From: a virus
Lineage: Duplodnaviria > Caudoviricetes
Length of the DNA stretch: 64,000 bases
Strand: one strand, 5' to 3'
IMG/VR virus record: IMGVR_UViG_3300025389_001063
Shown here one piece after another: positions 4,138 through 47,062 of this stretch (position 1 is the stretch's first letter; every line of letters begins with the position of its first letter). The position numbers were made by a program, and so were the translations under genes. Below the pieces are notes generated by a model. It ran no database searches. It saw nothing but the letters and a program-made list of their open reading frames with translations, and was not told the DNA's origin.

Positions 4138-4791
4138 ATGACAGACGAAATTATACCTCACGCATGGCCTACTGAATTTTCATGTTTAATTTATGTAGAT
4201 GATCTTATCTTAATAAACAATTACAAATTTGAAGTTGGATTTGATACAGCAAGTTCTAATCCAATTTTACACGACGTAGCATTTGAAAAGGTACAAATGT
4301 TTTTTGACATTCTTATGAATAATAGTATCCTTATTTCTAAGACGTCTTTTAGAGAGAAGAAATTTAATTTTGGCAATAATTATGTTGAATTGCCAGATAT
4401 GCTTAATGATCAGACATTAGGTGCTGTTATATTTTCAAAACTTATATCTTTAGTAGGAGAAGATTTAATAATAAGTTATGTTAAAGTGTCTAGTGAATTA
4501 GGTAGAAATATACGTTTTACTATTGACGATAATTCTCCCGAATTACATATTCTTCTTCCTAATAAAGAAGATTGGTGGGAAAATGATGAAATTAAAAATC
4601 AACCATGGTGGATGAGACCAGATACTGCAACATATGATGAAGTATTATCAGGAGAAGACATTTATAAGGGAGAATTTGATTGGAACGAACACTTTGGTGA
4701 AGATTTAGAAAGAGCAAAGAATTTAGATATTAAAAAAACTAAGTTTGAAATTATACATGGCGGAAAAGATGAAATTAAACCAAATAAGTGA
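4138..4791 (+). CDS. Hypothetical protein
   Basis: 217-aa ORF directly behind a promoter; no recognised motif. Confidence 0.6.
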   Translation: MTDEIIPHAWPTEFSCLIYVDDLILINNYKFEVGFDTASSNPILHDVAFEKVQMFFDILMNNSILISKTSFREKKFNFGNNYVELPDMLNDQTLGAVIFSKLISLVGEDLIISYVKVSSELGRNIRFTIDDNSPELHILLPNKEDWWENDEIKNQPWWMRPDTATYDEVLSGEDIYKGEFDWNEHFGEDLERAKNLDIKKTKFEIIHGGKDEIKPNK

Positions 4792-5296
4792 GCCAATATT
4801 TACAAGTCAAGATCTTATACAAGAAATATATCATGGAAATTTAAAAAAATTAAGTCTATCTAAAGTAGACGAACACGATCTTGATTATATGTCATATATA
4901 GAATTTGTAAATAATAATAAATTAAGGGACTGGCCTTGTCCAGATGCTTATTTAGGAGAAAATAGAACTCAAAAAGAGTATGATTCTTTATTGCAATCAC
5001 AATGGTTTATGCCTGAGAAATATAAAAACTTTGATATTGAAGAATATGTTCTATCTTTGTGTGAGAATAAAATACAAACAGATAGAATAAATTTAGAACT
5101 AAAATTATTTAAAAAATACAACATGATTCCACTATTAAGATTCCTTAAATATCTGGTTGAAAAAATGAGGGAAGATAAAATAGTATGGGGAGTTGGAAGA
5201 GGTTCTAGTGTTGCTAGTTATTGTCTCTATCTTTTAGGAGTTCACAAAATAGATTCGATTAAATACAACCTAGATATTAAAGAATTCTTAAAATAG
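4769..5296 (+). CDS. DNA polymerase III alpha (DnaE)-like fragment lacking the catalytic aspartates
   Basis: C-terminus IVWGVGRGSSVASYCLYLLGVHKIDSIKYNLDIKEFLK matches the DnaE GPGRGS...LGIT.IDP..Y.L.FERFL block; ORF stops before the PDIDID motif. Confidence 0.7.
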   Translation: MKLNQISEPIFTSQDLIQEIYHGNLKKLSLSKVDEHDLDYMSYIEFVNNNKLRDWPCPDAYLGENRTQKEYDSLLQSQWFMPEKYKNFDIEEYVLSLCENKIQTDRINLELKLFKKYNMIPLLRFLKYLVEKMREDKIVWGVGRGSSVASYCLYLLGVHKIDSIKYNLDIKEFLK

Positions 5297-5306
5297 GAGA
5301 TTTACA

Positions 5307-5606
5307 GTGGTTAGAAAAACATATAGAAGTCTACAAGGAAAAATAGTAGACATGGAATTACTTGCTCAGAAAAACGAATTAACTCCAGCAATTGGAAATG
5401 TTCGCGTTAATGCCAGAGGTGATGAGTTAGGCCCTGGTGGAAAAATTATACGTAAAAGAGAGGATATCATAGCAGAATACTATGAGAATAATCCTAATGC
5501 TGTTAAAGATGAGATGTATGTAAAACCAAGAAATAAAGATACTGAGTTAGAAACTCCACCTAAAGAGATTGAATCTACTAATAAAACTAGAGAAAAAAAG
5601 AACTAA
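5307..5606 (+). CDS. Hypothetical protein (GTG start)
   Basis: GGAG SD upstream of GTG; 99 aa. Confidence 0.6.
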   Translation: MVRKTYRSLQGKIVDMELLAQKNELTPAIGNVRVNARGDELGPGGKIIRKREDIIAEYYENNPNAVKDEMYVKPRNKDTELETPPKEIESTNKTREKKN

Positions 5607-5615
5607 TTTACAAAA

Positions 5616-7115
5616 ATGCATCATGCATTAATATTTAACGTACATATATTTCACCGTCGTGTGCCCGGTGCTTACAGGATTGCAACCTTCTTAAGAGAAG
5701 AAGGTTGGGATGTTGAAGTTATTGATTGGGCTAACGAGTGGCCTGGAGAAGAAATAAAAGAATTATGTAGATCAAGAATTACAAAAGATACTGTTTTTTG
5801 TGGATTTAGTTGCTTTTTTGGCTATTGGCCCGATCATATGGAAGAACTATCACAATGGATTAAAAAAACATACCCAGATGTAAAATTAATTCTTGGTGGT
5901 TCAAGTACTCCAAGAATGAAATCAACTTCTATAGACTATTTTATTCACGGTTATGGTGAAAAAGCATTATTAGAACTAATATCAAGTATCATAGGAAATA
6001 CCCCTGGAAAAGGAATTAAATTTGATAAATCTTTTGGAAGAAAAAAAGTAATTAGAGCAATAGACGATTATCCTTCTTTCCCTATGAAAAAATTAATGAT
6101 AAAATATGAAAAACGAGATTTCATAGATCATAAAGAATGGCTCGGAATTGAATTTAGTCGAGGTTGTAAATTTAAATGTCTCTATTGTAATTTTCCTGTA
6201 TTAGGAGTCAAAGGAGATTATACTAGAGATGCTGACGATTTTTATTATCAGATGAGAGATGCTTATGATCGTTGGGGAGTTACTGGATATGTTTGTGCAG
6301 ACGAAACATTTAACGATTCCACCGAAAAACTTATTAAATTTGCCGATGCTGCTGAAAAACTTCCATTTGATCCATGGTTTAGTGGATTTATAAGAGCCGA
6401 TTTATTAGTTTCAAGACCACAAGACCAAGAACACCTTGCAAGATTGGGATTCTTAGGACACTTTTATGGTATTGAAACTATGAATTATCAGACTGCTAAA
6501 GTAATTGGTAAAGGTATGCATCCAGATAAATTATTATCGGGATTATTAGAAGCAAAAAAGTACTTTCTTAATAATGGGCAAAAAAGATATAGAGGAGAAA
6601 TTGCATTAGTATTAGGCTTACCACATGAAACTGAAGAAACTATACAAAAGTCTTTAAAATGGATTTCTGATAATTGGCAAGACGAATCACATAAAATTTG
6701 GCCTTTAGAAATACCCACTGACATTAAAGAAGATGTATTATCTGGATTGAGTTTAAATTATGAAAAATATGGATATAGAAAGTCTTCGAAAAGAATAAAA
6801 AAAGAAATTAATCTTCCTCGCGAAGTTACACATGTCTCTAAAAATATGAACTGGGAAAACGACGATTTAAGTTTAATACGTTGTAAAGAAATTATCGACA
6901 ACTGGTTTAATCATTCTATAAAAATGAAATATAATTTTCGACTTACTCCTTGGGAATTAGATTTGTATCTCAGTCACGGAAAAAATATAGACAATGTTTT
7001 AAACTTGACATTGCAAGAAATATATCCTAAAATATTAGAAAAATCATGGGAAATACATAATTCTAGAGTTAAAAAATATATTAAGAAAAAACTTAATGTG
7101 AAAGGTAAAAAATGA
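5616..7115 (+). CDS. Cobalamin-binding (class B-like) radical SAM protein
   Basis: SRGCKFKCLYCNFP (CxxxCxxC); N-terminal B12-binding-like domain (GAYRIATFLREEGWDVEVID...KLILGG); FYGIET and LVLGLPHET motifs. Confidence 0.8.
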   Translation: MHHALIFNVHIFHRRVPGAYRIATFLREEGWDVEVIDWANEWPGEEIKELCRSRITKDTVFCGFSCFFGYWPDHMEELSQWIKKTYPDVKLILGGSSTPRMKSTSIDYFIHGYGEKALLELISSIIGNTPGKGIKFDKSFGRKKVIRAIDDYPSFPMKKLMIKYEKRDFIDHKEWLGIEFSRGCKFKCLYCNFPVLGVKGDYTRDADDFYYQMRDAYDRWGVTGYVCADETFNDSTEKLIKFADAAEKLPFDPWFSGFIRADLLVSRPQDQEHLARLGFLGHFYGIETMNYQTAKVIGKGMHPDKLLSGLLEAKKYFLNNGQKRYRGEIALVLGLPHETEETIQKSLKWISDNWQDESHKIWPLEIPTDIKEDVLSGLSLNYEKYGYRKSSKRIKKEINLPREVTHVSKNMNWENDDLSLIRCKEIIDNWFNHSIKMKYNFRLTPWELDLYLSHGKNIDNVLNLTLQEIYPKILEKSWEIHNSRVKKYIKKKLNVKGKK

Positions 7116-7441
7116 AAATTAGACCAATTCTTGATCATGTAATTGTGGAAGATATGGAATTCGGTGAGCAACGAACTGCTAGCGGAATTATTATTGTTGA
7201 CGATGATGGGAAACAACATGGTATTAAACCTCGTTGGGGTAAAGTTTATGCTGTTGGACCTAAACAAGAAGATGTTAAGCCGGGCGATTGGATCCTTATA
7301 GAACATGGTCGTTGGACTAGAGGATTTAATTTTACAAACGACGATGGCTCTATTTTTACTTTGCGTAGAGTGGACACTGATGCTATTATAATGTCAAGTG
7401 ATAGAAAACCCACTGACACTTATACAGCAGGTGAAATATGA
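7112..7441 (+). CDS. groES: GroES-like co-chaperonin
   Basis: MKIRPILDHVIVE...RTASGIII...GKVYAVGP...VKPGDWIL pattern. Confidence 0.85.
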   Translation: MKIRPILDHVIVEDMEFGEQRTASGIIIVDDDGKQHGIKPRWGKVYAVGPKQEDVKPGDWILIEHGRWTRGFNFTNDDGSIFTLRRVDTDAIIMSSDRKPTDTYTAGEI

Positions 7442-7872
7442 GCAATATTGATCTAAACAAGTATAGAGAATTTGTAGAAGCAGTAACAAGTAAAGAAAGT
7501 AAAGATCTAACTTCATTTATGAATAGGTTAGATGACATCGACGCAAATTATATCGGTGATGGTGTTCATGGTCCCGACATAAACGTTCCACTAATGCTAA
7601 CAGCCGCAATTGGTATGGCTGCTGAGTGTGGAGAATTTTGTGAACTCCCAAAGAAAATCATCTTTCAAGGTAAACCTCTCAATGAAGATACACTCTTTCA
7701 TATGAAACGTGAACTTGGAGACATTATGTGGTATTGGGTTAATGCTTGTAATGCTTTAAGACTCGATCCTAATGAAGTTATTGCTGAAAATGTTCGCAAA
7801 CTTGAAGCAAGATATCCAGGCGGACACTTCGATGCTTTCTATAGTGAGAACCGTAAGGAAGGCGATCTCTAA
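7438..7872 (+). CDS. MazG-like nucleotide pyrophosphohydrolase
   Basis: GMAAECGEF...KRELGDIMWY...NVRKLEARYP motifs. Confidence 0.8.
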   Translation: MSNIDLNKYREFVEAVTSKESKDLTSFMNRLDDIDANYIGDGVHGPDINVPLMLTAAIGMAAECGEFCELPKKIIFQGKPLNEDTLFHMKRELGDIMWYWVNACNALRLDPNEVIAENVRKLEARYPGGHFDAFYSENRKEGDL

Positions 7873-8031: not shown

Positions 8032-8303
8032 AGTGGCTCGATAAATGGTTTGCTAAAAAATGTCGTCAGGCTTGGAACGAAGAACCATCGCCAAGCATAA
8101 TAAAAGTAAATGAAATTAGCAACGGACCTTCTTCTGATGGTATGAACATTAAAGTATGGGGTGCTACTGGCGGACATATTGTTGAATTCCGTAAGTATGA
8201 TCATACAACAGATCGCAACGATAATAGAATGTATATTATTCCAGCAGATAAGGATTTTAGCGAAAGTCTAACTAAAATTATTTCTATGGAGATGCTACGT
8301 TGA
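8028..8303 (+). CDS. Hypothetical protein
   Basis: ATGA coupling to the upstream gene and 4-nt overlap with the downstream start. Confidence 0.6.
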   Translation: MKWLDKWFAKKCRQAWNEEPSPSIIKVNEISNGPSSDGMNIKVWGATGGHIVEFRKYDHTTDRNDNRMYIIPADKDFSESLTKIISMEMLR

Positions 8304-9229
8304 AAGATCTCTGGGTAGAAAAGTATAGACCAAAAGAGATTAAAGACTATGTGTTTCGTGATGAAAACCAAAAAGCACAGGTAGAATCTTGGGTTAAGGA
8401 AGGTACTATTCCTCACTTATTGCTAAGTGGATCACCAGGTATTGGTAAAACAACACTTGCTAAAATGTTAATTCATGCTATTGACGTTAATGACTTTGAC
8501 GTATTAGTTGCTAATGGTTCTAAAGAGGGTAGAAAAGTAGAGTGGATTGACAAACTTATATCTTTTTGCCAAACTATTCCCTTTGGACCATACAAAGTTG
8601 TACTAATCGATGAGGCAGATTATATGAATCCTCATAGTACACAGCCAGCACTTCGCAATCTTATGGAAGAATATCATTCTACTGTAAGATTTATCTTAAC
8701 TTGTAACTATCCACACAAAATTATTCCAGCATTACACTCACGTTGTCAGGGATTTCATGTTGAAACTGTAGATAAAGACGAGTTTACAGCGAGAGTAGCA
8801 ACAATTCTTGTTAGTGAGAATATCGATTTAGATCTCGATACACTTGATACATTTGTTAAGGCAACATATCCAGATATGAGGAAATGTATTAATCTTGTTC
8901 AAATGAATTCATCTAGCGGTAAACTTGTGGAACCAGATAAAAATGATAAAAATGCTGCTGATTGGCATTTGAATATGGTTCAATTGTTTAAGGCTGGAAA
9001 AATTAGTGAAGCAAGAAAACTTGTTTGTAAAAATGCTCAGCCAGATGAAATGGAAGATATCTATCGTTGGTTGTATGATAATTTAGATATTATCAGTGAG
9101 GATGAATCTGTACAAGATAAGGCAATCTTACACATTAAACAGGGTCTTGTGGATCATACTCTAGTTGCTGATCCTGAAATCAATTTAGCAGCGACGTTAA
9201 TACGAATTGCTAATTTAGTAGAGAAGTAA
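8300..9229 (+). CDS. Clamp loader AAA+ subunit (RFC small subunit / T4 gp44-like)
   Basis: LWVEKYRP, SGSPGIGKTT (Walker A), LIDEADYM (Walker B), LHSRCQ; TTG start with GGAG. Confidence 0.9.
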   Translation: MKDLWVEKYRPKEIKDYVFRDENQKAQVESWVKEGTIPHLLLSGSPGIGKTTLAKMLIHAIDVNDFDVLVANGSKEGRKVEWIDKLISFCQTIPFGPYKVVLIDEADYMNPHSTQPALRNLMEEYHSTVRFILTCNYPHKIIPALHSRCQGFHVETVDKDEFTARVATILVSENIDLDLDTLDTFVKATYPDMRKCINLVQMNSSSGKLVEPDKNDKNAADWHLNMVQLFKAGKISEARKLVCKNAQPDEMEDIYRWLYDNLDIISEDESVQDKAILHIKQGLVDHTLVADPEINLAATLIRIANLVEK

Positions 9230-11427: not shown

Positions 11428-12312
11428 ATGAATTATTATGCTACATTAGGCGTAGAAAGAACTGCGTCACCCGAAGAAATTAAAGCAGCTTATCGTAAAT
11501 TAGCAATGAAACATCATCCTGATCGCGGCGGTGATGAAAAAATGTTTCAAGAAATTACACAAGCATATGAAATATTAAGCGACCCTTCTAAGAAATCTCA
11601 GTATGATATGGGTGGAATGAATAATAACCCCCAATGGCAACAATTTCATAGCGGACATCCATTTACTGGGGATCCTTTTGGAAATCCTTTTGGTGGTACA
11701 GGCGGTGGACATCCCTTTGAAGATATTTTTGCACAATTTGGATTTGGATTTCCGCATGGAAGACCTCAACCAAAAAATAATGATTTACAAATCAAAATAA
11801 AAGTTAGCCTTAGAGATAGTTTTCTTGGTAAATCTATGAATGTTAGTTACCCTTTACCTAGTGGTAAACAAGAGAATACAGAAATTAGAATCCCCCCTGG
11901 AGTAATTCCAGGTCAATCTATTAAATTAGGCGGACTTGGGGACGATAGTATACATGGTATTCCTAGAGGAGATCTTATTATTCATATCGAAGTCGATCGA
12001 GATAATAATTTTCATCGAGAAGATTTGTCATTAGTAACAAAAACAACTATCGATGTTTTTGATGCTATGCTAGGTTGCAAAAGAATAATAAAAAATATAG
12101 ACGATTCTGAAGTTGAAGTTACAATTAGACCAGGTACACAAAATGGTCAAAAATATTCTTGTAAAGGGCTGGGTTTTCCTAATATTAGATTTCCATCCGA
12201 TAGAGGAGATCTCGTCGTACAAGTTATAGTAACTACTCCAGTAATTACAGATACATCGTCAATAGAGAAAGTAAAAGAGATGGCAGAATATATCCGTAGA
12301 ACAAAAAAATAA
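11428..12312 (+). CDS. dnaJ: DnaJ/CbpA-type co-chaperone (J domain, G/F region, C-terminal domain; no zinc finger)
   Basis: NYYATLGV...KHHPDRGG (HPD motif), G/F-rich linker, GDLIIHI and GDLVVQV repeats. Confidence 0.9.
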   Translation: MNYYATLGVERTASPEEIKAAYRKLAMKHHPDRGGDEKMFQEITQAYEILSDPSKKSQYDMGGMNNNPQWQQFHSGHPFTGDPFGNPFGGTGGGHPFEDIFAQFGFGFPHGRPQPKNNDLQIKIKVSLRDSFLGKSMNVSYPLPSGKQENTEIRIPPGVIPGQSIKLGGLGDDSIHGIPRGDLIIHIEVDRDNNFHREDLSLVTKTTIDVFDAMLGCKRIIKNIDDSEVEVTIRPGTQNGQKYSCKGLGFPNIRFPSDRGDLVVQVIVTTPVITDTSSIEKVKEMAEYIRRTKK

Positions 12313-12350: not shown

Positions 12351-12845
12351 ATGTTAGACCTTAAATACGAACCTTACCCACTGTTACATATGCCACTGGC
12401 AAAATATGAATTTGATCAAGACACAAAAGAACTTGAGAAATTAATGATCGAAACTATGAAAAAATATCGTGGTATCGGTCTTGCTGCTAGTCAAGTCGAT
12501 ATCCCATATCAAATGTTTGTAATGGGAACTGATTTAGTTGAAGGATTTATTGAACCAACAATATTCATTAATCCTTCTATTACTAAAGTTAGTGAAGAGA
12601 GAACTCTCGACAAAGAAGGATGTTTAAGTTTTCCAAATTTATGGCTAAAGGTTGAAAGACCTTCTTGGATTGAAGCAATATATCAAAGTGTCGACGGTAA
12701 ATGGAATGAGATTAGAGTTGAAGGATATATGGCTAAATGCTTTCAACATGAGTTTGATCATCTACACGGAGTATGCTATACTGATAGAGTAGGTAGATTG
12801 AAATTAGAAATGGCTATCAAAAAGATGCGAAAGGGTAAGAAATGA
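12351..12845 (+). CDS. def: Peptide deformylase
   Basis: GIGLAASQV, EGCLS and QHEFDHLHG: all three PDF motifs. Confidence 0.95.
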   Translation: MLDLKYEPYPLLHMPLAKYEFDQDTKELEKLMIETMKKYRGIGLAASQVDIPYQMFVMGTDLVEGFIEPTIFINPSITKVSEERTLDKEGCLSFPNLWLKVERPSWIEAIYQSVDGKWNEIRVEGYMAKCFQHEFDHLHGVCYTDRVGRLKLEMAIKKMRKGKK

Positions 12846-15109
12846 TTTTAGAGCCAAGTGAAGACTTACAAATTATCTATGATCGGGCAATAGAGATTGC
12901 TAATTCACACCAACATGAATATCTTACCTTAGAACATCTTGTTTTATCTATTGCTAGTGATGAAAAATTTGCTACATTCTTAAATTCATATTCAGGAGAT
13001 CTAGATTATGTTCGCGTAAATCTAGAACATTTCATTAAAACTAATCTTAATGACATTGTAAATGACAGTAAAAAAATTAATCCTCAAAAAACACAGACAG
13101 TTGATCGTTGTCTTAATAGAGCATTTACACAAGTATTATTTCAAGGTCGTCAAAAAATAGAAGTTAACGATCTATTTCTTAGTATTCTAAATGAAAGAAA
13201 AAGTTACTCAGTTTACTATCTTAATAAAGCAGGGTTTACTAAAGAAAAATTTAGTGATTATGTCGATGAAGAAACAATCCAAGTAGACGACGAAACAGTT
13301 AATCCAGGTCAAGTTGATAAACTATTATCACAATTTACAACTAATATGAATCAACAAGTTCAGAAAAATAAAATTGATCCTGTTATTGGCCGTGAAACCG
13401 AAATTGAAAGTATTATTCTTGCTCTTGGACGTCGTAATAAAGCAAACGTGATTCTAGTAGGTGATCCAGGTGTTGGTAAAACTGCTATTGCTGAAGGACT
13501 TGCCTTTGAAATTGTTAATGGTGATGTTCCAGAATTTATTCAAGATAATACGATTTATAATTTAGATATCGGTGCTATGATTGCTGGATCAAAGTATCGC
13601 GGTGAATTTGAAGAAAGGCTTAAAGCAGTTCTCAAAGCTATCGAAAAGAAAGGTAAGGCAATCATCTTTATCGACGAAGCTCATATGATGAGTGGTGCTG
13701 GATCAAGTAGTAGCAATCCAAATGATATGGCTAATATGTTAAAGCCTGCTCTAAGTAAAGGTGCTATTAAAGTTATTGCTTCCACAACTTGGGAAGAATA
13801 TCGTAAACACTTTGAAAAGGATCGTGCTTTAATGCGTCGATTCCAACGTGTAACTGTTGATGAACCAACAGCAGAAGTTGCTATAGATATTCTTAAAGGT
13901 ATTAAGAAGTATTACGAAAAGTTTCACAAGGCAGAAATTACAGATGCTGCTATCGAGGACGCTGTTAAATTATCAGTTAAGTACCTCACTGATAAGAAGT
14001 TACCGGATAAGGCAATTGATCTTATTGACCTTGCTTGTTCTAGATTTAAACTTGATGCTAGTAAAGCACGAGTTGTTACAAAGAAAAGTATTGAATTTGA
14101 ATTAAGTAAGATGGTTAAACTTCCTATCGAAGCAGTTGCTGAAACAGAAAGCGAAGGACTTGCTAATCTTGAAGAAAATATGAAGCATAAAGTCTTTGGA
14201 CAGGACAAAGCAATCGACGATGTTTTAGATAAAATCTTTATTGCTCGTGCTGGACTTAAAGATCCTACTAAACCAATTGGTAGTTTCTTGTTTGTTGGCC
14301 CAACTGGATGCGGTAAGACCGAGACAGCAAAGCAACTAGCAGATAATCTTGCTGTGAACTTAATTCGCTTTGATATGAGTGAATATCAAGAGAAACATAG
14401 TGTTGCTAAGTTGATCGGCTCGCCACCAGGTTATGTTGGCTACGAAGAAAACGCAGGTATGTTAATCACTAAGGTTCAAGAACATCCACATTGTGTTCTA
14501 CTTCTTGACGAGATTGAAAAGGCTCATCCAGATGTTAGTAATGTACTACTCCAGTTAATGGATAATGGTATGGTTACTGGATCAAATGGCAAGGTTGCTG
14601 ATTGCCGTAATGTTATCTTAATTATGACATCTAATCTTGGTGCCAAGGATAGTGAAAGACAAACTATTGGCTTCTCTACAGAAGAGCGATACAACGACGG
14701 CGAAGATGCGATGACAAACTTCTTTGCTCCAGAGTTTCGCAATAGATTAGACGGTGTTATTAAGTTTAACAAGTTGGGCAAAGAGAGTATGGAACATATT
14801 GTTAAGAAGTTCATTAAGGATCTTAACAACTTGCTTGCCGAGAAAAATGTAAAGGTAGAAGTTAACGATAATGGAATGGCTCTACTCGTTAAGAGAGGAT
14901 TCAATCCAAAGATGGGTGCTCGTCCGTTAGCAAGAATTATTGATACTGATATTAAGAAACCACTTAGTCGAGAAATGCTATTTGGTAAACTTAAGAACGG
15001 TGGCATAGTTGATGTTGACGCAGAAGGAAAAGATGTTATACTGAACTTCAGAGGATCTAATGAGAATACACAAGACGGACAAACTCTTTTACCGCTCTTT
15101 TCCATATAA
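12842..15109 (+). CDS. clpA: ClpA-like Clp protease ATP-binding subunit
   Basis: Clp N domain (HEYLTLEHL); two Walker A motifs (GDPGVGKT, GPTGCGKT); GSPPGYVGY; IGF ClpP-docking loop; no ClpB coiled coil. Confidence 0.9.
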   Translation: MILEPSEDLQIIYDRAIEIANSHQHEYLTLEHLVLSIASDEKFATFLNSYSGDLDYVRVNLEHFIKTNLNDIVNDSKKINPQKTQTVDRCLNRAFTQVLFQGRQKIEVNDLFLSILNERKSYSVYYLNKAGFTKEKFSDYVDEETIQVDDETVNPGQVDKLLSQFTTNMNQQVQKNKIDPVIGRETEIESIILALGRRNKANVILVGDPGVGKTAIAEGLAFEIVNGDVPEFIQDNTIYNLDIGAMIAGSKYRGEFEERLKAVLKAIEKKGKAIIFIDEAHMMSGAGSSSSNPNDMANMLKPALSKGAIKVIASTTWEEYRKHFEKDRALMRRFQRVTVDEPTAEVAIDILKGIKKYYEKFHKAEITDAAIEDAVKLSVKYLTDKKLPDKAIDLIDLACSRFKLDASKARVVTKKSIEFELSKMVKLPIEAVAETESEGLANLEENMKHKVFGQDKAIDDVLDKIFIARAGLKDPTKPIGSFLFVGPTGCGKTETAKQLADNLAVNLIRFDMSEYQEKHSVAKLIGSPPGYVGYEENAGMLITKVQEHPHCVLLLDEIEKAHPDVSNVLLQLMDNGMVTGSNGKVADCRNVILIMTSNLGAKDSERQTIGFSTEERYNDGEDAMTNFFAPEFRNRLDGVIKFNKLGKESMEHIVKKFIKDLNNLLAEKNVKVEVNDNGMALLVKRGFNPKMGARPLARIIDTDIKKPLSREMLFGKLKNGGIVDVDAEGKDVILNFRGSNENTQDGQTLLPLFSI

Positions 15110-44392: not shown

Positions 44393-47062
44393 ATGTCATA
44401 TGTGGATGGAATTTTTGATAGAACAAATGATCAAATTAAAATTGTTGAGAGAGTAGACGGCAAGAGACATTATAAAGAATATCCTGCTCGTTATGTCTTT
44501 TATTATCCAGATGCTAAAGGTAAGTACGAAAGCGTATATGGAGAAAAGTTAAGTCGTGTTAGTGCTCGCAATCAGAAGGACTTTCACAAAGAACTTAAAA
44601 TACATTCTGGAAAAAGAATGTACGAAAGCGACATTAATCCGATTTTCAAATGTTTAGAAGAACACTACTTAAACATAGATGCCCCGGAGTTACACATTGC
44701 GTTTTTCGATATTGAGACTGATTTTGATCCTGAGCGAGGCTTTGCTGATCCTAGTGACCCTTTTATGGGTATCACTGCCATTTCGGTACATCTTAAATGG
44801 TTAAACAGATTAGTAACACTTGCTGTTCCTCCTAAAGGATTAACAGTAGAACAAGCACAAGAACAATGTGCTGAATTTGAAGATTGTTTTATATTTGCTC
44901 GTGAAGCAGATATGCTAGAAACATTCCTTGATTTAATAGATGACGCAGATATATTAAGTGGTTGGAATTCGGAAGGTTACGACGTTCCTTATACTGTTAA
45001 TCGAGTAGCAAGAGTCTTAAGCAAAGAAGATACTAGACGTTTCTGCTTGTGGGATCAATTTCCCAAGAAACGAGAATTTGAAAAGTACGGACGTCAAATG
45101 GTTACATATGACTTTGTTGGTCGCGTACATCTTGACAGTCTTGAACTTTATAGAAAATACACTTATGAAGAAAGACATACATATCGACTTGATGCTATCG
45201 GTGAGATGGAAATAGGCGAACGTAAAACTGTTTACGAAGGCACACTTGATCAACTTTATAACAATGACTTTAGAACATTTATTGAATATAACAGGCAAGA
45301 CGTCGCACTACTTAACAAACTTGATGACAAATTAAGATTTATTGATTTGAGTAACGAACTTGCTCATGCTAACACCGTTCTACTTCAAACAACTATGGGT
45401 GCCGTTGCTGTTACTGAACAAGCAATTATAAATGAGGCTCATCGTCGAGGACTAATTGTTCCTAATCGTCCAAAGCGTGATGAAAGCGAAAATACACAAG
45501 CCGCAGGTGCTTATGTCGCTTATCCAAAAAAGGGATTACACGATTGGATCGGCAGTATGGATATTAACTCACTGTATCCAAGTGCTATTAGAGCATTGAA
45601 CATGGCTCCAGAAACAATCATTGGTCAGTTACGTCCGGAACATACAGACGAATACATCGAAACACAAATGAGATTACATAAGAAATCATTTGCTGCGGCA
45701 TGGGAAGGTCGATTCTCTACTTTTGAATATGATTGGGTTATGGATAAAGACAAAGGCAAAGAAATTACTGTTGATTGGGAGAATGGTGAATCAACTGTAA
45801 TGAGTGGAGCAGAGATTTATAAACTAATCTTTGATAGTCATAATCCTTGGATGATTACTTCCAATGGCACAATCTTTACACATGAGTTTGAAGGTGTTAT
45901 TCCTGGACTTCTAAAGCGTTGGTATGCCGAACGTAAAGAACTTCAGGCAAAGGCCAAAGAAGCATTAAAAGCAGATAACAAAGTAGAACATGCTTTTTGG
46001 GATAAGCGTCAGTTAGTTAAAAAGATTAACTTGAACAGTTTGTATGGTGCTATTCTTAATGCTGGTTGTCGTTTCTTCGATAAGCGTATTGGACAATCAA
46101 CTACTCTTGTTGGTAGGCAGGTTGCTAAACATATGGCATCAAAAGTTAATGAGATTGTAGCAGGAGAATATGATCACATTGGTAAGGCTATTATATATGG
46201 TGATACCGACTCTGTTTATTTCTCAGCATACAATGTCTTAAAGAAAGATATTGAGGCTGGAAACATTCCCTGGAGTAAAGATAATGTTATTAGCCTCTAT
46301 GATCAAATATCAGATGAAGTAAATGGAACATTCTCCAACTTCATGCTAAATGCCTTCCACTGTCCAAAGAGTCGCGGTGAAGTTATTAAGGCTGGTCGTG
46401 AAATTGTTGCCAGCAAAGGCTTGTTCATTACTAAAAAGCGTTATGCTGTTCTTTATTATGATTCAGAAGGCAAGAGATATGACGTTGATGATAAACCAGG
46501 CAAGATCAAGGCAATGGGCTTAGACCTTAAGAGATCAGATACCCCAGAGTTCATGCAAGACTTTTTAAGTAAGATCCTTGATCGCGTTCTAAATAATGCC
46601 AAGGAGGAAGAAATTCTTGATATGATTACACAATTTAGAATAGACTTTAAGAGTAGACCTGGATGGGAAAAAGGTTCTCCAAAGAGAGCAAACAATATTA
46701 CCGAATATATGAAGAAAGAACAAAAGGCCGGTAAGGCAAATATGCCGGGACATGTTAGAGCAAGTCTTAATTGGAATACTCTTAAGAAGATGTATAACGA
46801 TAACTATTCCATTACTATCAGTGACGGTTCAAAAGTTATTGTTTGTAAACTAAAACATAACCCAATGGGCTTTACATCTGTTGCGTATCCAGTTGACGAG
46901 CTAAGACTACCACAGTGGTTTAAAGATTTACCATTTGATGATGCTAGTATGGAAGCAGCAATTATCGATGCTAAACTAGACAACCTTATTGGCGTTCTAG
47001 AATGGAATCTTACGAGTACATCTGAATCTACAACGTTCAATAAATTATTTGCTTTTGACTGA
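44393..47062 (+). CDS. Family B DNA polymerase (T4 gp43-like)
   Basis: Exo I FDIETD; DINSLYPS; KINLNSLYG; YGDTDS; KKRY. Confidence 0.95.
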   Translation: MSYVDGIFDRTNDQIKIVERVDGKRHYKEYPARYVFYYPDAKGKYESVYGEKLSRVSARNQKDFHKELKIHSGKRMYESDINPIFKCLEEHYLNIDAPELHIAFFDIETDFDPERGFADPSDPFMGITAISVHLKWLNRLVTLAVPPKGLTVEQAQEQCAEFEDCFIFAREADMLETFLDLIDDADILSGWNSEGYDVPYTVNRVARVLSKEDTRRFCLWDQFPKKREFEKYGRQMVTYDFVGRVHLDSLELYRKYTYEERHTYRLDAIGEMEIGERKTVYEGTLDQLYNNDFRTFIEYNRQDVALLNKLDDKLRFIDLSNELAHANTVLLQTTMGAVAVTEQAIINEAHRRGLIVPNRPKRDESENTQAAGAYVAYPKKGLHDWIGSMDINSLYPSAIRALNMAPETIIGQLRPEHTDEYIETQMRLHKKSFAAAWEGRFSTFEYDWVMDKDKGKEITVDWENGESTVMSGAEIYKLIFDSHNPWMITSNGTIFTHEFEGVIPGLLKRWYAERKELQAKAKEALKADNKVEHAFWDKRQLVKKINLNSLYGAILNAGCRFFDKRIGQSTTLVGRQVAKHMASKVNEIVAGEYDHIGKAIIYGDTDSVYFSAYNVLKKDIEAGNIPWSKDNVISLYDQISDEVNGTFSNFMLNAFHCPKSRGEVIKAGREIVASKGLFITKKRYAVLYYDSEGKRYDVDDKPGKIKAMGLDLKRSDTPEFMQDFLSKILDRVLNNAKEEEILDMITQFRIDFKSRPGWEKGSPKRANNITEYMKKEQKAGKANMPGHVRASLNWNTLKKMYNDNYSITISDGSKVIVCKLKHNPMGFTSVAYPVDELRLPQWFKDLPFDDASMEAAIIDAKLDNLIGVLEWNLTSTSESTTFNKLFAFD

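Follow-up and report, generated by a model that had tools for sequence, protein, structure and literature searches.

A short DnaE-like gene of an uncultured large phage as the probable N-terminal half of a two-gene minimal DNA polymerase III alpha subunit

Why should a phage with a family B replicase of its own also encode a small piece of a bacterial replicase that stops just ahead of the catalytic residues? The question is raised by a gene in IMG/VR record IMGVR_UViG_3300025389_001063, a virus of the class Caudoviricetes, of which a stretch of 64,000 nucleotides (nt; hereafter the window) was analysed. The gene lies at 4769..5296 on the + strand and encodes a protein of 175 residues with homology to the alpha subunit of DNA polymerase III (Pol III alpha, in bacteria DnaE or PolC). 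An earlier note, made from the sequence alone, regarded it as one subunit of a naturally split, minimal C-family nucleotidyltransferase with its catalytic half encoded elsewhere. The core of this idea is supported by a published description of such an enzyme, by the junction between the two halves, and by their co-occurrence in complete genomes of relatives. The gene very probably encodes the N-terminal, nucleotide-binding half (the N-half) of the two-gene minimal Pol III alpha of group 2.2 jumbo phages, and its product would associate with a separately encoded C-terminal half (the C-half).

The split arrangement as such is already known from a genome-based description (Iyer et al. 2021, Viruses 13:63, PMC7824862), and the window adds one member to it, no new principle. 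According to these authors, group 2.2 jumbo phages have a phage-specific minimal Pol III alpha beside a family B polymerase. It consists of two proteins from distant genes, of which the N-terminal piece binds nucleoside triphosphates (NTP) and the C-terminal piece binds Mg2+ and the template. They suggested that it synthesizes one of the strands or functions in repair, and used it as a model for the ancestral Pol III.

The reading frame in the window is clean, as the earlier note had it, and comprises 175 uninterrupted codons, with its ATG at 4769 and its TAG at 5294-5296. An in-frame ATG at 4757 is an alternative start that adds MAEK, and the same four-residue extension is present in a few members of an alignment of 56 homologues (38–77% identical to the query). 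The gene belongs to a long run of genes on the same strand and overlaps its upstream neighbour by 23 nt. The next gene starts with a GTG at 5307, 10 nt past the stop codon and in a different frame, behind a Shine-Dalgarno sequence of its own (AGGAG) that overlaps the stop codon of the N-half. Reading on in frame past this stop leads to a second one after five codons, and no PDxDxD continuation is found in the gene starting at 5307, in agreement with the earlier statement that there is no obvious frameshift. A scan for promoters and terminators between 3700 and 9400 gave a result no better than chance.

Residues 101-174 match the Pfam family DNA_pol3_alpha (PF07733; E 4.9e-11, 43.2 bits against a cut-off of 23.9) over profile positions 21-94 of 260, and this is the sole Pfam match of the protein. 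In a profile of the 56 homologues, residues 103-174 correspond to E. coli DnaE 321-392, ending in ...LLFERFL, and the C-terminal EFLK corresponds to residues 389-393. The last block, from W140 to K175 (5186..5293, + strand; WGVGRGSSVASYCLYLLGVHKIDSIKYNLDIKEFLK), holds the GS (nucleotide-binding) motif, aligns with GPGRGSGAGS...LLFERFL of E. coli DnaE (357-392) and ends at the equivalent of FERFL. Beyond FERFL the E. coli protein continues with NPERVS-MPDFDVDF, in which D401 and D403 are catalytic aspartates, so that the N-half ends six residues ahead of D401. The claim that the catalytic motif follows directly in full DnaE thus holds, with the six residues NPERVS intervening in E. coli. The GS motif and the three catalytic aspartates, which in DnaE and PolC are parts of one polypeptide, are not found together in the open reading frame (ORF) of the N-half.

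Two regions can be distinguished in the protein. Residues 76-175 (4994..5293, + strand) correspond to the beginning of the DnaE palm and, in the structural alignment described below (VIA-align), to positions 278-393 of the E. coli protein. Residues 1-75 (4769..4993, + strand) form a beta/alpha region without a DnaE counterpart, which is specific to the phage family and stands in place of the PHP domain of DnaE; no PHP domain was matched in the N-half by Pfam at E <= 1, and only these 75 residues precede the palm part. All alignments of the N-half with C-family polymerases begin at residue 69-79. Residues conserved in the N-terminal region are D15, I20, Y21, G23, D37, Y43, W55, P56 and P58.

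The AlphaFold2 model of the N-half has a mean predicted local distance difference test score (pLDDT) of 86.6. Residues 76-175 superpose on E. coli DnaE (4jom) 278-393 with Z 8.8 and a root-mean-square deviation of 2.5 Å over 93 residues, and also on M. tuberculosis DnaE1 305-413 and PolC 823-964. In a search of 48,161 chains made independently of Foldseek, all seven matches with a Z of at least 5 are DnaE or PolC, and the next match has Z 3.7. The palm-front fold and the GS motif are accordingly shared with bacterial DnaE and PolC (2hnh, 4jom, 5fku), and the Pfam match, the profile alignment and the structural match agree that the C-terminus is the GRGS block of DnaE ending at FERFL, as the earlier note proposed. 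Residues 1-75 are modelled with confidence (pLDDT 86-93); the structural searches made with the whole N-half model, with no separate search for this region, gave no counterpart for it. Residues 136-146, just ahead of GRGS, are modelled as coil with the lowest confidence, and may be a strand awaiting its sheet partner.

The N-half belongs to a widespread family. It matches PHROG 11127 (annotated "DNA polymerase") at E 2.6e-42, with residues 16-175 on profile positions 22-171 of 171, and at least 7,980 homologues occur in a large metagenomic protein collection. The 120 homologues listed are 49–77% identical to it, the closest non-identical homologue found being at most 77% identical, and nearly all are 171-182 residues long. 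Several of them are encoded on contigs 300-360 kb long, and a contig of 351,300 bp encodes the exact protein. A gene for about 170-180 residues is also present in cultured jumbo phages, for example MIJ3 (a PA5oct relative; MIJ3_00130), GAP32 (GAP32_323) and other RaK2-like phages, XacN1 (ORF245) and RsoM2USA. Its product is often annotated as "DNA polymerase III alpha subunit", and over residues 70-175 the N-half is 50–56% identical to these proteins. In the 56-sequence alignment W140, G141, G143, R144, G145, S146, S147, V148, S150, L153, L155, H159, Y166, L168, E172 and F173 are invariant, and the proteins end at EFL[KR], rare short tails excepted. With the C-terminal block almost frozen in this alignment, the GRGS block is under strong purifying selection. 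The N-half is a conserved family, not a product of decay.

No protein fusing an N-half to a C-half was found among the longer N-half relatives searched. The sole longer relative is P0121 (ENA, on a 5.6-kb contig, outside the window), a protein of 666 residues in which a complete N-half (residues 7-175) is in frame with the C-terminal part of a ribonucleotide reductase barrel and no C-half is present. It may be a true fusion or the result of a lost stop codon.

The partner was located by a scan with PF17657 (finger), which gave an ORF of 188 residues in XacN1, starting with M-D-I-D-I-D-I, and one of 216 residues in GAP32. A phmmer search with these two sequences gave an ORF of 200 residues in MIJ3, identical to PA5oct EST35_0220. 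This C-half family, with members of about 190 residues, is PHROG 11778 (E 6e-65). In 55 of 84 IMG/VR members the aspartate motif begins at most two residues past the first methionine, most commonly in the form M-P-D-I-D-I-D-F-A; the C-halves of cultured phages lack the proline of P-D-x-D-x-D. D2, D4, D6, K62, D64, R131, P132, K134, K161, H164 and Y168 are invariant among the 84. Besides the third aspartate, in K-x-D-F-L, the C-half keeps the two finger motifs I-R-P-x-K and F-K-K-x-H-A-x-x-Y. By eye, the phage sequence YFKLDFLN resembles LVKFDFLG of E. coli DnaE, which holds D555. The C-half profile aligns with E. coli DnaE at 399-421 (MPDFDVDF), 596-641 (...ALFRPG) and 752-767 (GYGFNKSHSAAYAL). 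In a model of one member (pLDDT 93.1), residues 1-183 can be superposed on positions 401-779 of E. coli DnaE (171 residues, Z 8.5) and on positions 462-841 of Taq DnaE (184 residues, Z 9.5). The structural search with this model is led by 13 matches that are all C-family polymerases, after which Z drops to 3.4.

Other routes to a catalytic half were tried and abandoned. PF07733 as a finder gave only the N-half in the phage's own record and in the three complete phages MIJ3, GAP32 and XacN1, and a second match in GAP32 (E 0.008) was dropped as it overlaps a dCMP deaminase gene. A DNA pattern for P-D-x-D-x-D had as its sole match a GAP32 ORF of 451 residues, which is unlike the C-half and by eye of VWA or metallopeptidase type. 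The 99-residue gene at 5307-5606, with its conserved h-V-D-M-E motif, was likewise considered as the catalytic half and dropped once the PHROG 11778 family had been found.

The junction between the two families is exact: the N-half stops at DnaE position 393 and the C-half begins at 399-401, leaving only NPERVS between them. Together they match the aspartates D401, D403 and D555 and the RP and KSH...Y finger motifs of bacterial DnaE. Of DnaE, the two halves retain the palm and the core of the fingers. Most of the finger region is missing, together with the PHP domain, the thumb and all parts further towards the C-terminus, including the clamp-binding motif, the OB fold and the tau-binding part. 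The phage pair amounts to about 365 residues in two chains, whereas DnaE has about 1,160 in one; the 75-residue N-terminal region, on the other hand, is found only in the phage family.

The two genes also occur together. In each of the three complete cultured genomes of MIJ3, GAP32 and XacN1 both halves are present exactly once, separated by 15 to 43 kb, and across all genomes tested the distance is 15-208 kb. In a tblastn search of a phage collection the C-half matches 96 records and the N-half 162, the excess consisting mostly of phages with a full-length DnaE (e.g. Gordonia and Bacillus phages). By host genus, the numbers of records with N-half and C-half are equal for Escherichia (34/34), Salmonella (8/8), Erwinia (8/8), Xanthomonas (4/4) and Yersinia (4/4). 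Among IMG/VR contigs picked for the N-half, the C-half is present in four of the six of at least 200 kb and in none of the 12 shorter fragments. Conversely, four of the five long contigs picked for the C-half contain an N-half. Among these four are both of the tested contigs rated 100% complete, in which the halves are about 180 and 208 kb apart. Co-occurrence across related phages, which the earlier note proposed as a check, is found in the three cultured phages and in eight long IMG/VR contigs, including the two complete ones.

These data also bear on whether the gene could be the remnant of a decaying full-length phage DnaE, or a piece linked to its partner through frameshifting, readthrough or a split intein. 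A full DnaE matching the same query does occur in other phages (e.g. those of Gordonia and Bacillus), and intein-split dnaE genes are known in cyanobacteria, where the products of dnaE-n and dnaE-c are joined by protein trans-splicing. Like the phage pair, the cyanobacterial enzyme is a C-family polymerase encoded by two genes that are far apart. However, the phage halves have no intein segments at the junction, and there is no room for them on either side: no intein-N extension follows the N-halves, and in most C-halves M-P-D stands at the very start, without an intein-C segment. The split site also differs, lying ahead of the catalytic aspartates, and the product would be a non-covalent minimal pair instead of a ligated full-length enzyme. 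Thousands of homologues end at the same EFL[KR], most of the 120 listed have a length of 171-182 residues, and the halves are many kilobases apart in every genome tested, while the second stop codon and the change of frame described above argue against frameshift and readthrough. Simple decay, which the earlier note considered, would leave an intact DnaE at this locus in relatives or an unconstrained GRGS block, and neither was seen. Decay or joining is therefore extremely improbable.

The full-length DnaE of group 3.2 jumbo phages and of Gordonia and Bacillus phages (PHROG 405) is homologous to the N-half over the GRGS region, with a match at E 8e-10. It differs in being a single-chain, host-like protein with a PHP domain that serves as the main replicase of these phages, whereas the main replicase of the window phage is of family B. 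The N-terminal piece of the group 2.2 enzyme (PHROG 11127), in contrast, is like the window gene in length, in its palm-front homology, in the GRGS block and in stopping before the aspartates. The order of N-half, small protein, GroES-like protein and clamp loader is common to both. Nothing essential differs; in the phage of the window, which is uncultured and about 350 kb in size, a radical SAM gene is inserted in the block.

Several points weigh against our interpretation. No C-half was detected in the 107,488-bp IMG/VR record of the window phage, which is 28% complete (best E 0.26-0.28 with the profile at full sensitivity). The expectation in the earlier note of a complementary ORF with a PDIDID-like start therefore holds for related genomes, with their M-P-D-I-D-I-D family of about 190 residues, and fails for this record; the window phage would presumably carry its copy elsewhere in its genome. 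Two long N-half contigs, 55% and 66% complete, also lack a C-half. In a sequence-only search of solved structures the N-half profile had no match at E <= 0.01, its match to DnaE being at E 0.29, and the best E of a Foldseek search of solved structures was 0.13. The match to DnaE was settled by the structural aligner. (The sole match of the single N-half sequence among solved structures was Arp5, a chance match.) In the literature searched no experimental study of the split polymerase was found. Finally, in a pair without a thumb, a clamp-binding part and a proofreading domain, processive templated synthesis is not assured.

The missing partner in the 107-kb record could be taken to mean that the N-half is a stand-alone, non-catalytic piece of DnaE, either a decoy or regulator that binds a host Pol III partner, or a nucleotide- or DNA-binding module. 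Its lack of the catalytic aspartates and its family-specific N-terminal region of 75 residues, to which no role is assigned, would fit this view. A non-catalytic accessory protein was in fact our initial reading, which was set aside in view of the published two-piece enzyme (Iyer et al. 2021, PMC7824862). A C-half family that starts exactly where the N-half stops, and that accompanies it in complete genomes, is difficult to reconcile with a protein acting alone. Moreover, its most conserved part is the catalytic GS motif and not a known clamp-, tau- or epsilon-binding surface. To our knowledge, DnaE 278-393 holds no docking site for Pol III partners. A stand-alone function thus seems very unlikely, and the decoy of host DnaE that the earlier note mentioned is not favoured, in view of the co-occurring C-half and of the catalytic nature of the best conserved motif.

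We propose instead the following division of labour for the split enzyme. In nucleotidyltransferases with a Pol-beta fold, the GS loop holds the triphosphate of the incoming nucleotide. The N-half would contribute the GS loop (GRGSS) of such a Pol-beta-like fold together with the helical palm front, its chain stopping in the loop just ahead of the strand with two metal-binding aspartates. The finger helices would come from the C-half, as would the sheet that carries the three metal-binding aspartates. N-half and C-half would dock non-covalently, without an intein, into one active site of about 365 residues, and the reconstituted enzyme, without the PHP, thumb, clamp-binding and OB parts of DnaE, would probably act as a polymerase beside the family B replicase in replication or repair.

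The family B polymerase is encoded at 44393-47062 and has the Pfam domains DNA_pol_B and exonuclease. An RFC/gp44-like clamp-loader ATPase is encoded at 8300..9229 on the + strand (Pfam AAA, DNA_pol3_delta2, AAA_lid_RFC1 and Gp44_lid), so that the family B replicase and clamp loader named in the earlier note are indeed present. A family B polymerase with an RFC-like loader, as in phages of the group 2.2 type, is thus found in the window. Homologues of the clamp loader occur at 40 of 57 N-half loci, at a median offset of +3,008 nt downstream, and the linkage is likewise seen in MIJ3, GAP32 and XacN1. At 66 of 84 C-half loci, and also in PA5oct, a gene for a DnaG/Toprim primase follows about 1.2 kb downstream. 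With a clamp loader close to the N-half and a DnaG-type primase close to the C-half, both halves are located in replication modules.

The halves could also assemble into something other than a conventional replicative polymerase: an enzyme for short-patch synthesis or primer extension (following the primase and preceding the clamp-loaded family B polymerase), for repair or gap filling, or a template-independent nucleotidyltransferase. The absence of the thumb, clamp-binding motif, OB fold and PHP domain is in line with this, as is the compactness of the C-half, which spans DnaE 401-779 in only 190 residues. The phage moreover already has a full family B polymerase, and the roles proposed by Iyer et al. 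2021 (PMC7824862) are one-strand synthesis or repair. The positions of the C-half ahead of the primase and of the N-half about 3 kb ahead of the clamp loader may also be read in this way, but linkage to replication genes does not tell these roles apart. The invariance of the DnaE finger motifs RP and KxHxxxY fits templated selection of deoxynucleoside triphosphates. On balance, we consider an enzyme of such an unconventional kind possible, though rather unlikely.

A more specific and quite speculative role, to which we give little weight, is that of a hand-off enzyme, in which the two-piece mini Pol III would extend primers made by DnaG before the clamp-loaded family B polymerase takes over, with the 99-residue protein encoded directly downstream of the N-half as a third subunit or as a tether to the clamp loader or chaperonin. 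The linkages of the C-half with the primase and of the N-half with the clamp loader are compatible with this, as is that of the N-half with genes for such small proteins.

The gene for this protein (5307..5606, + strand, with a GTG start) is a conserved neighbour of the N-half. Its product matches PHROG 14844 at E 1.2e-14 and is 45–46% identical, over about 55 residues, to the products of the genes directly 3' of the N-half in MIJ3 and GAP32. A homologue of this type, of about 100-130 residues, is located directly downstream of the N-half in 51 of the 57 loci. The protein consists of a conserved N-terminal part of about 55 residues, G-x-h-V-D-M-E/D ... N-A-R-G-D-x-L-G-P-G-G, followed by a charged tail. 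It may act together with either the split polymerase or the GroES-like protein.

The third gene of the conserved block encodes a GroES-like co-chaperonin (7112..7441, + strand; Pfam Cpn10 at E 3.1e-9), which is found in 50 of the 57 N-half loci at a median offset of +835 nt. In the window the block is interrupted, between the gene for the 99-residue protein and that for the GroES-like protein, by a B12-binding radical SAM gene (5616-7115, + strand; Pfam B12-binding and Radical_SAM), a homologue of which lies near the N-half in only eight of 56 related loci. A MazG-like pyrophosphohydrolase is encoded at 7438-7872. The GroES-like gene is part of a set of chaperone genes close together on the + strand, with a full DnaJ (11428-12312; J domain and C-terminal domain) and a ClpB-like two-ring AAA+ protein (12842-15109).

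The neighbourhood of the C-half is fixed as well (locus L106, 4764-5747, and 65 other loci; PA5oct MK797984.1, 145884-146912). It includes an upstream gene for a protein of 230 residues (PHROG 11058), a gene on the opposite strand for one of 123 residues (PHROG 11637), and a gene for a protein of about 260 residues with a weak match to the virion structural protein family PHROG 14467, followed by that for the DnaG/Toprim primase.

With about 365 residues in two chains, the pair is the smallest known version of the bacterial replicase fold, and this mini C-family core coexists with a family B replicase of archaeal/eukaryotic type and an RFC-like loader. If it should indeed hand primers over to the family B polymerase, it would be for the phage what Pol alpha is for eukaryotes. 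In cultured relatives, PA5oct and the RaK2-like phages among them, one can ask directly what a Pol III core without thumb and clamp is able to do, and why giant phages keep it.

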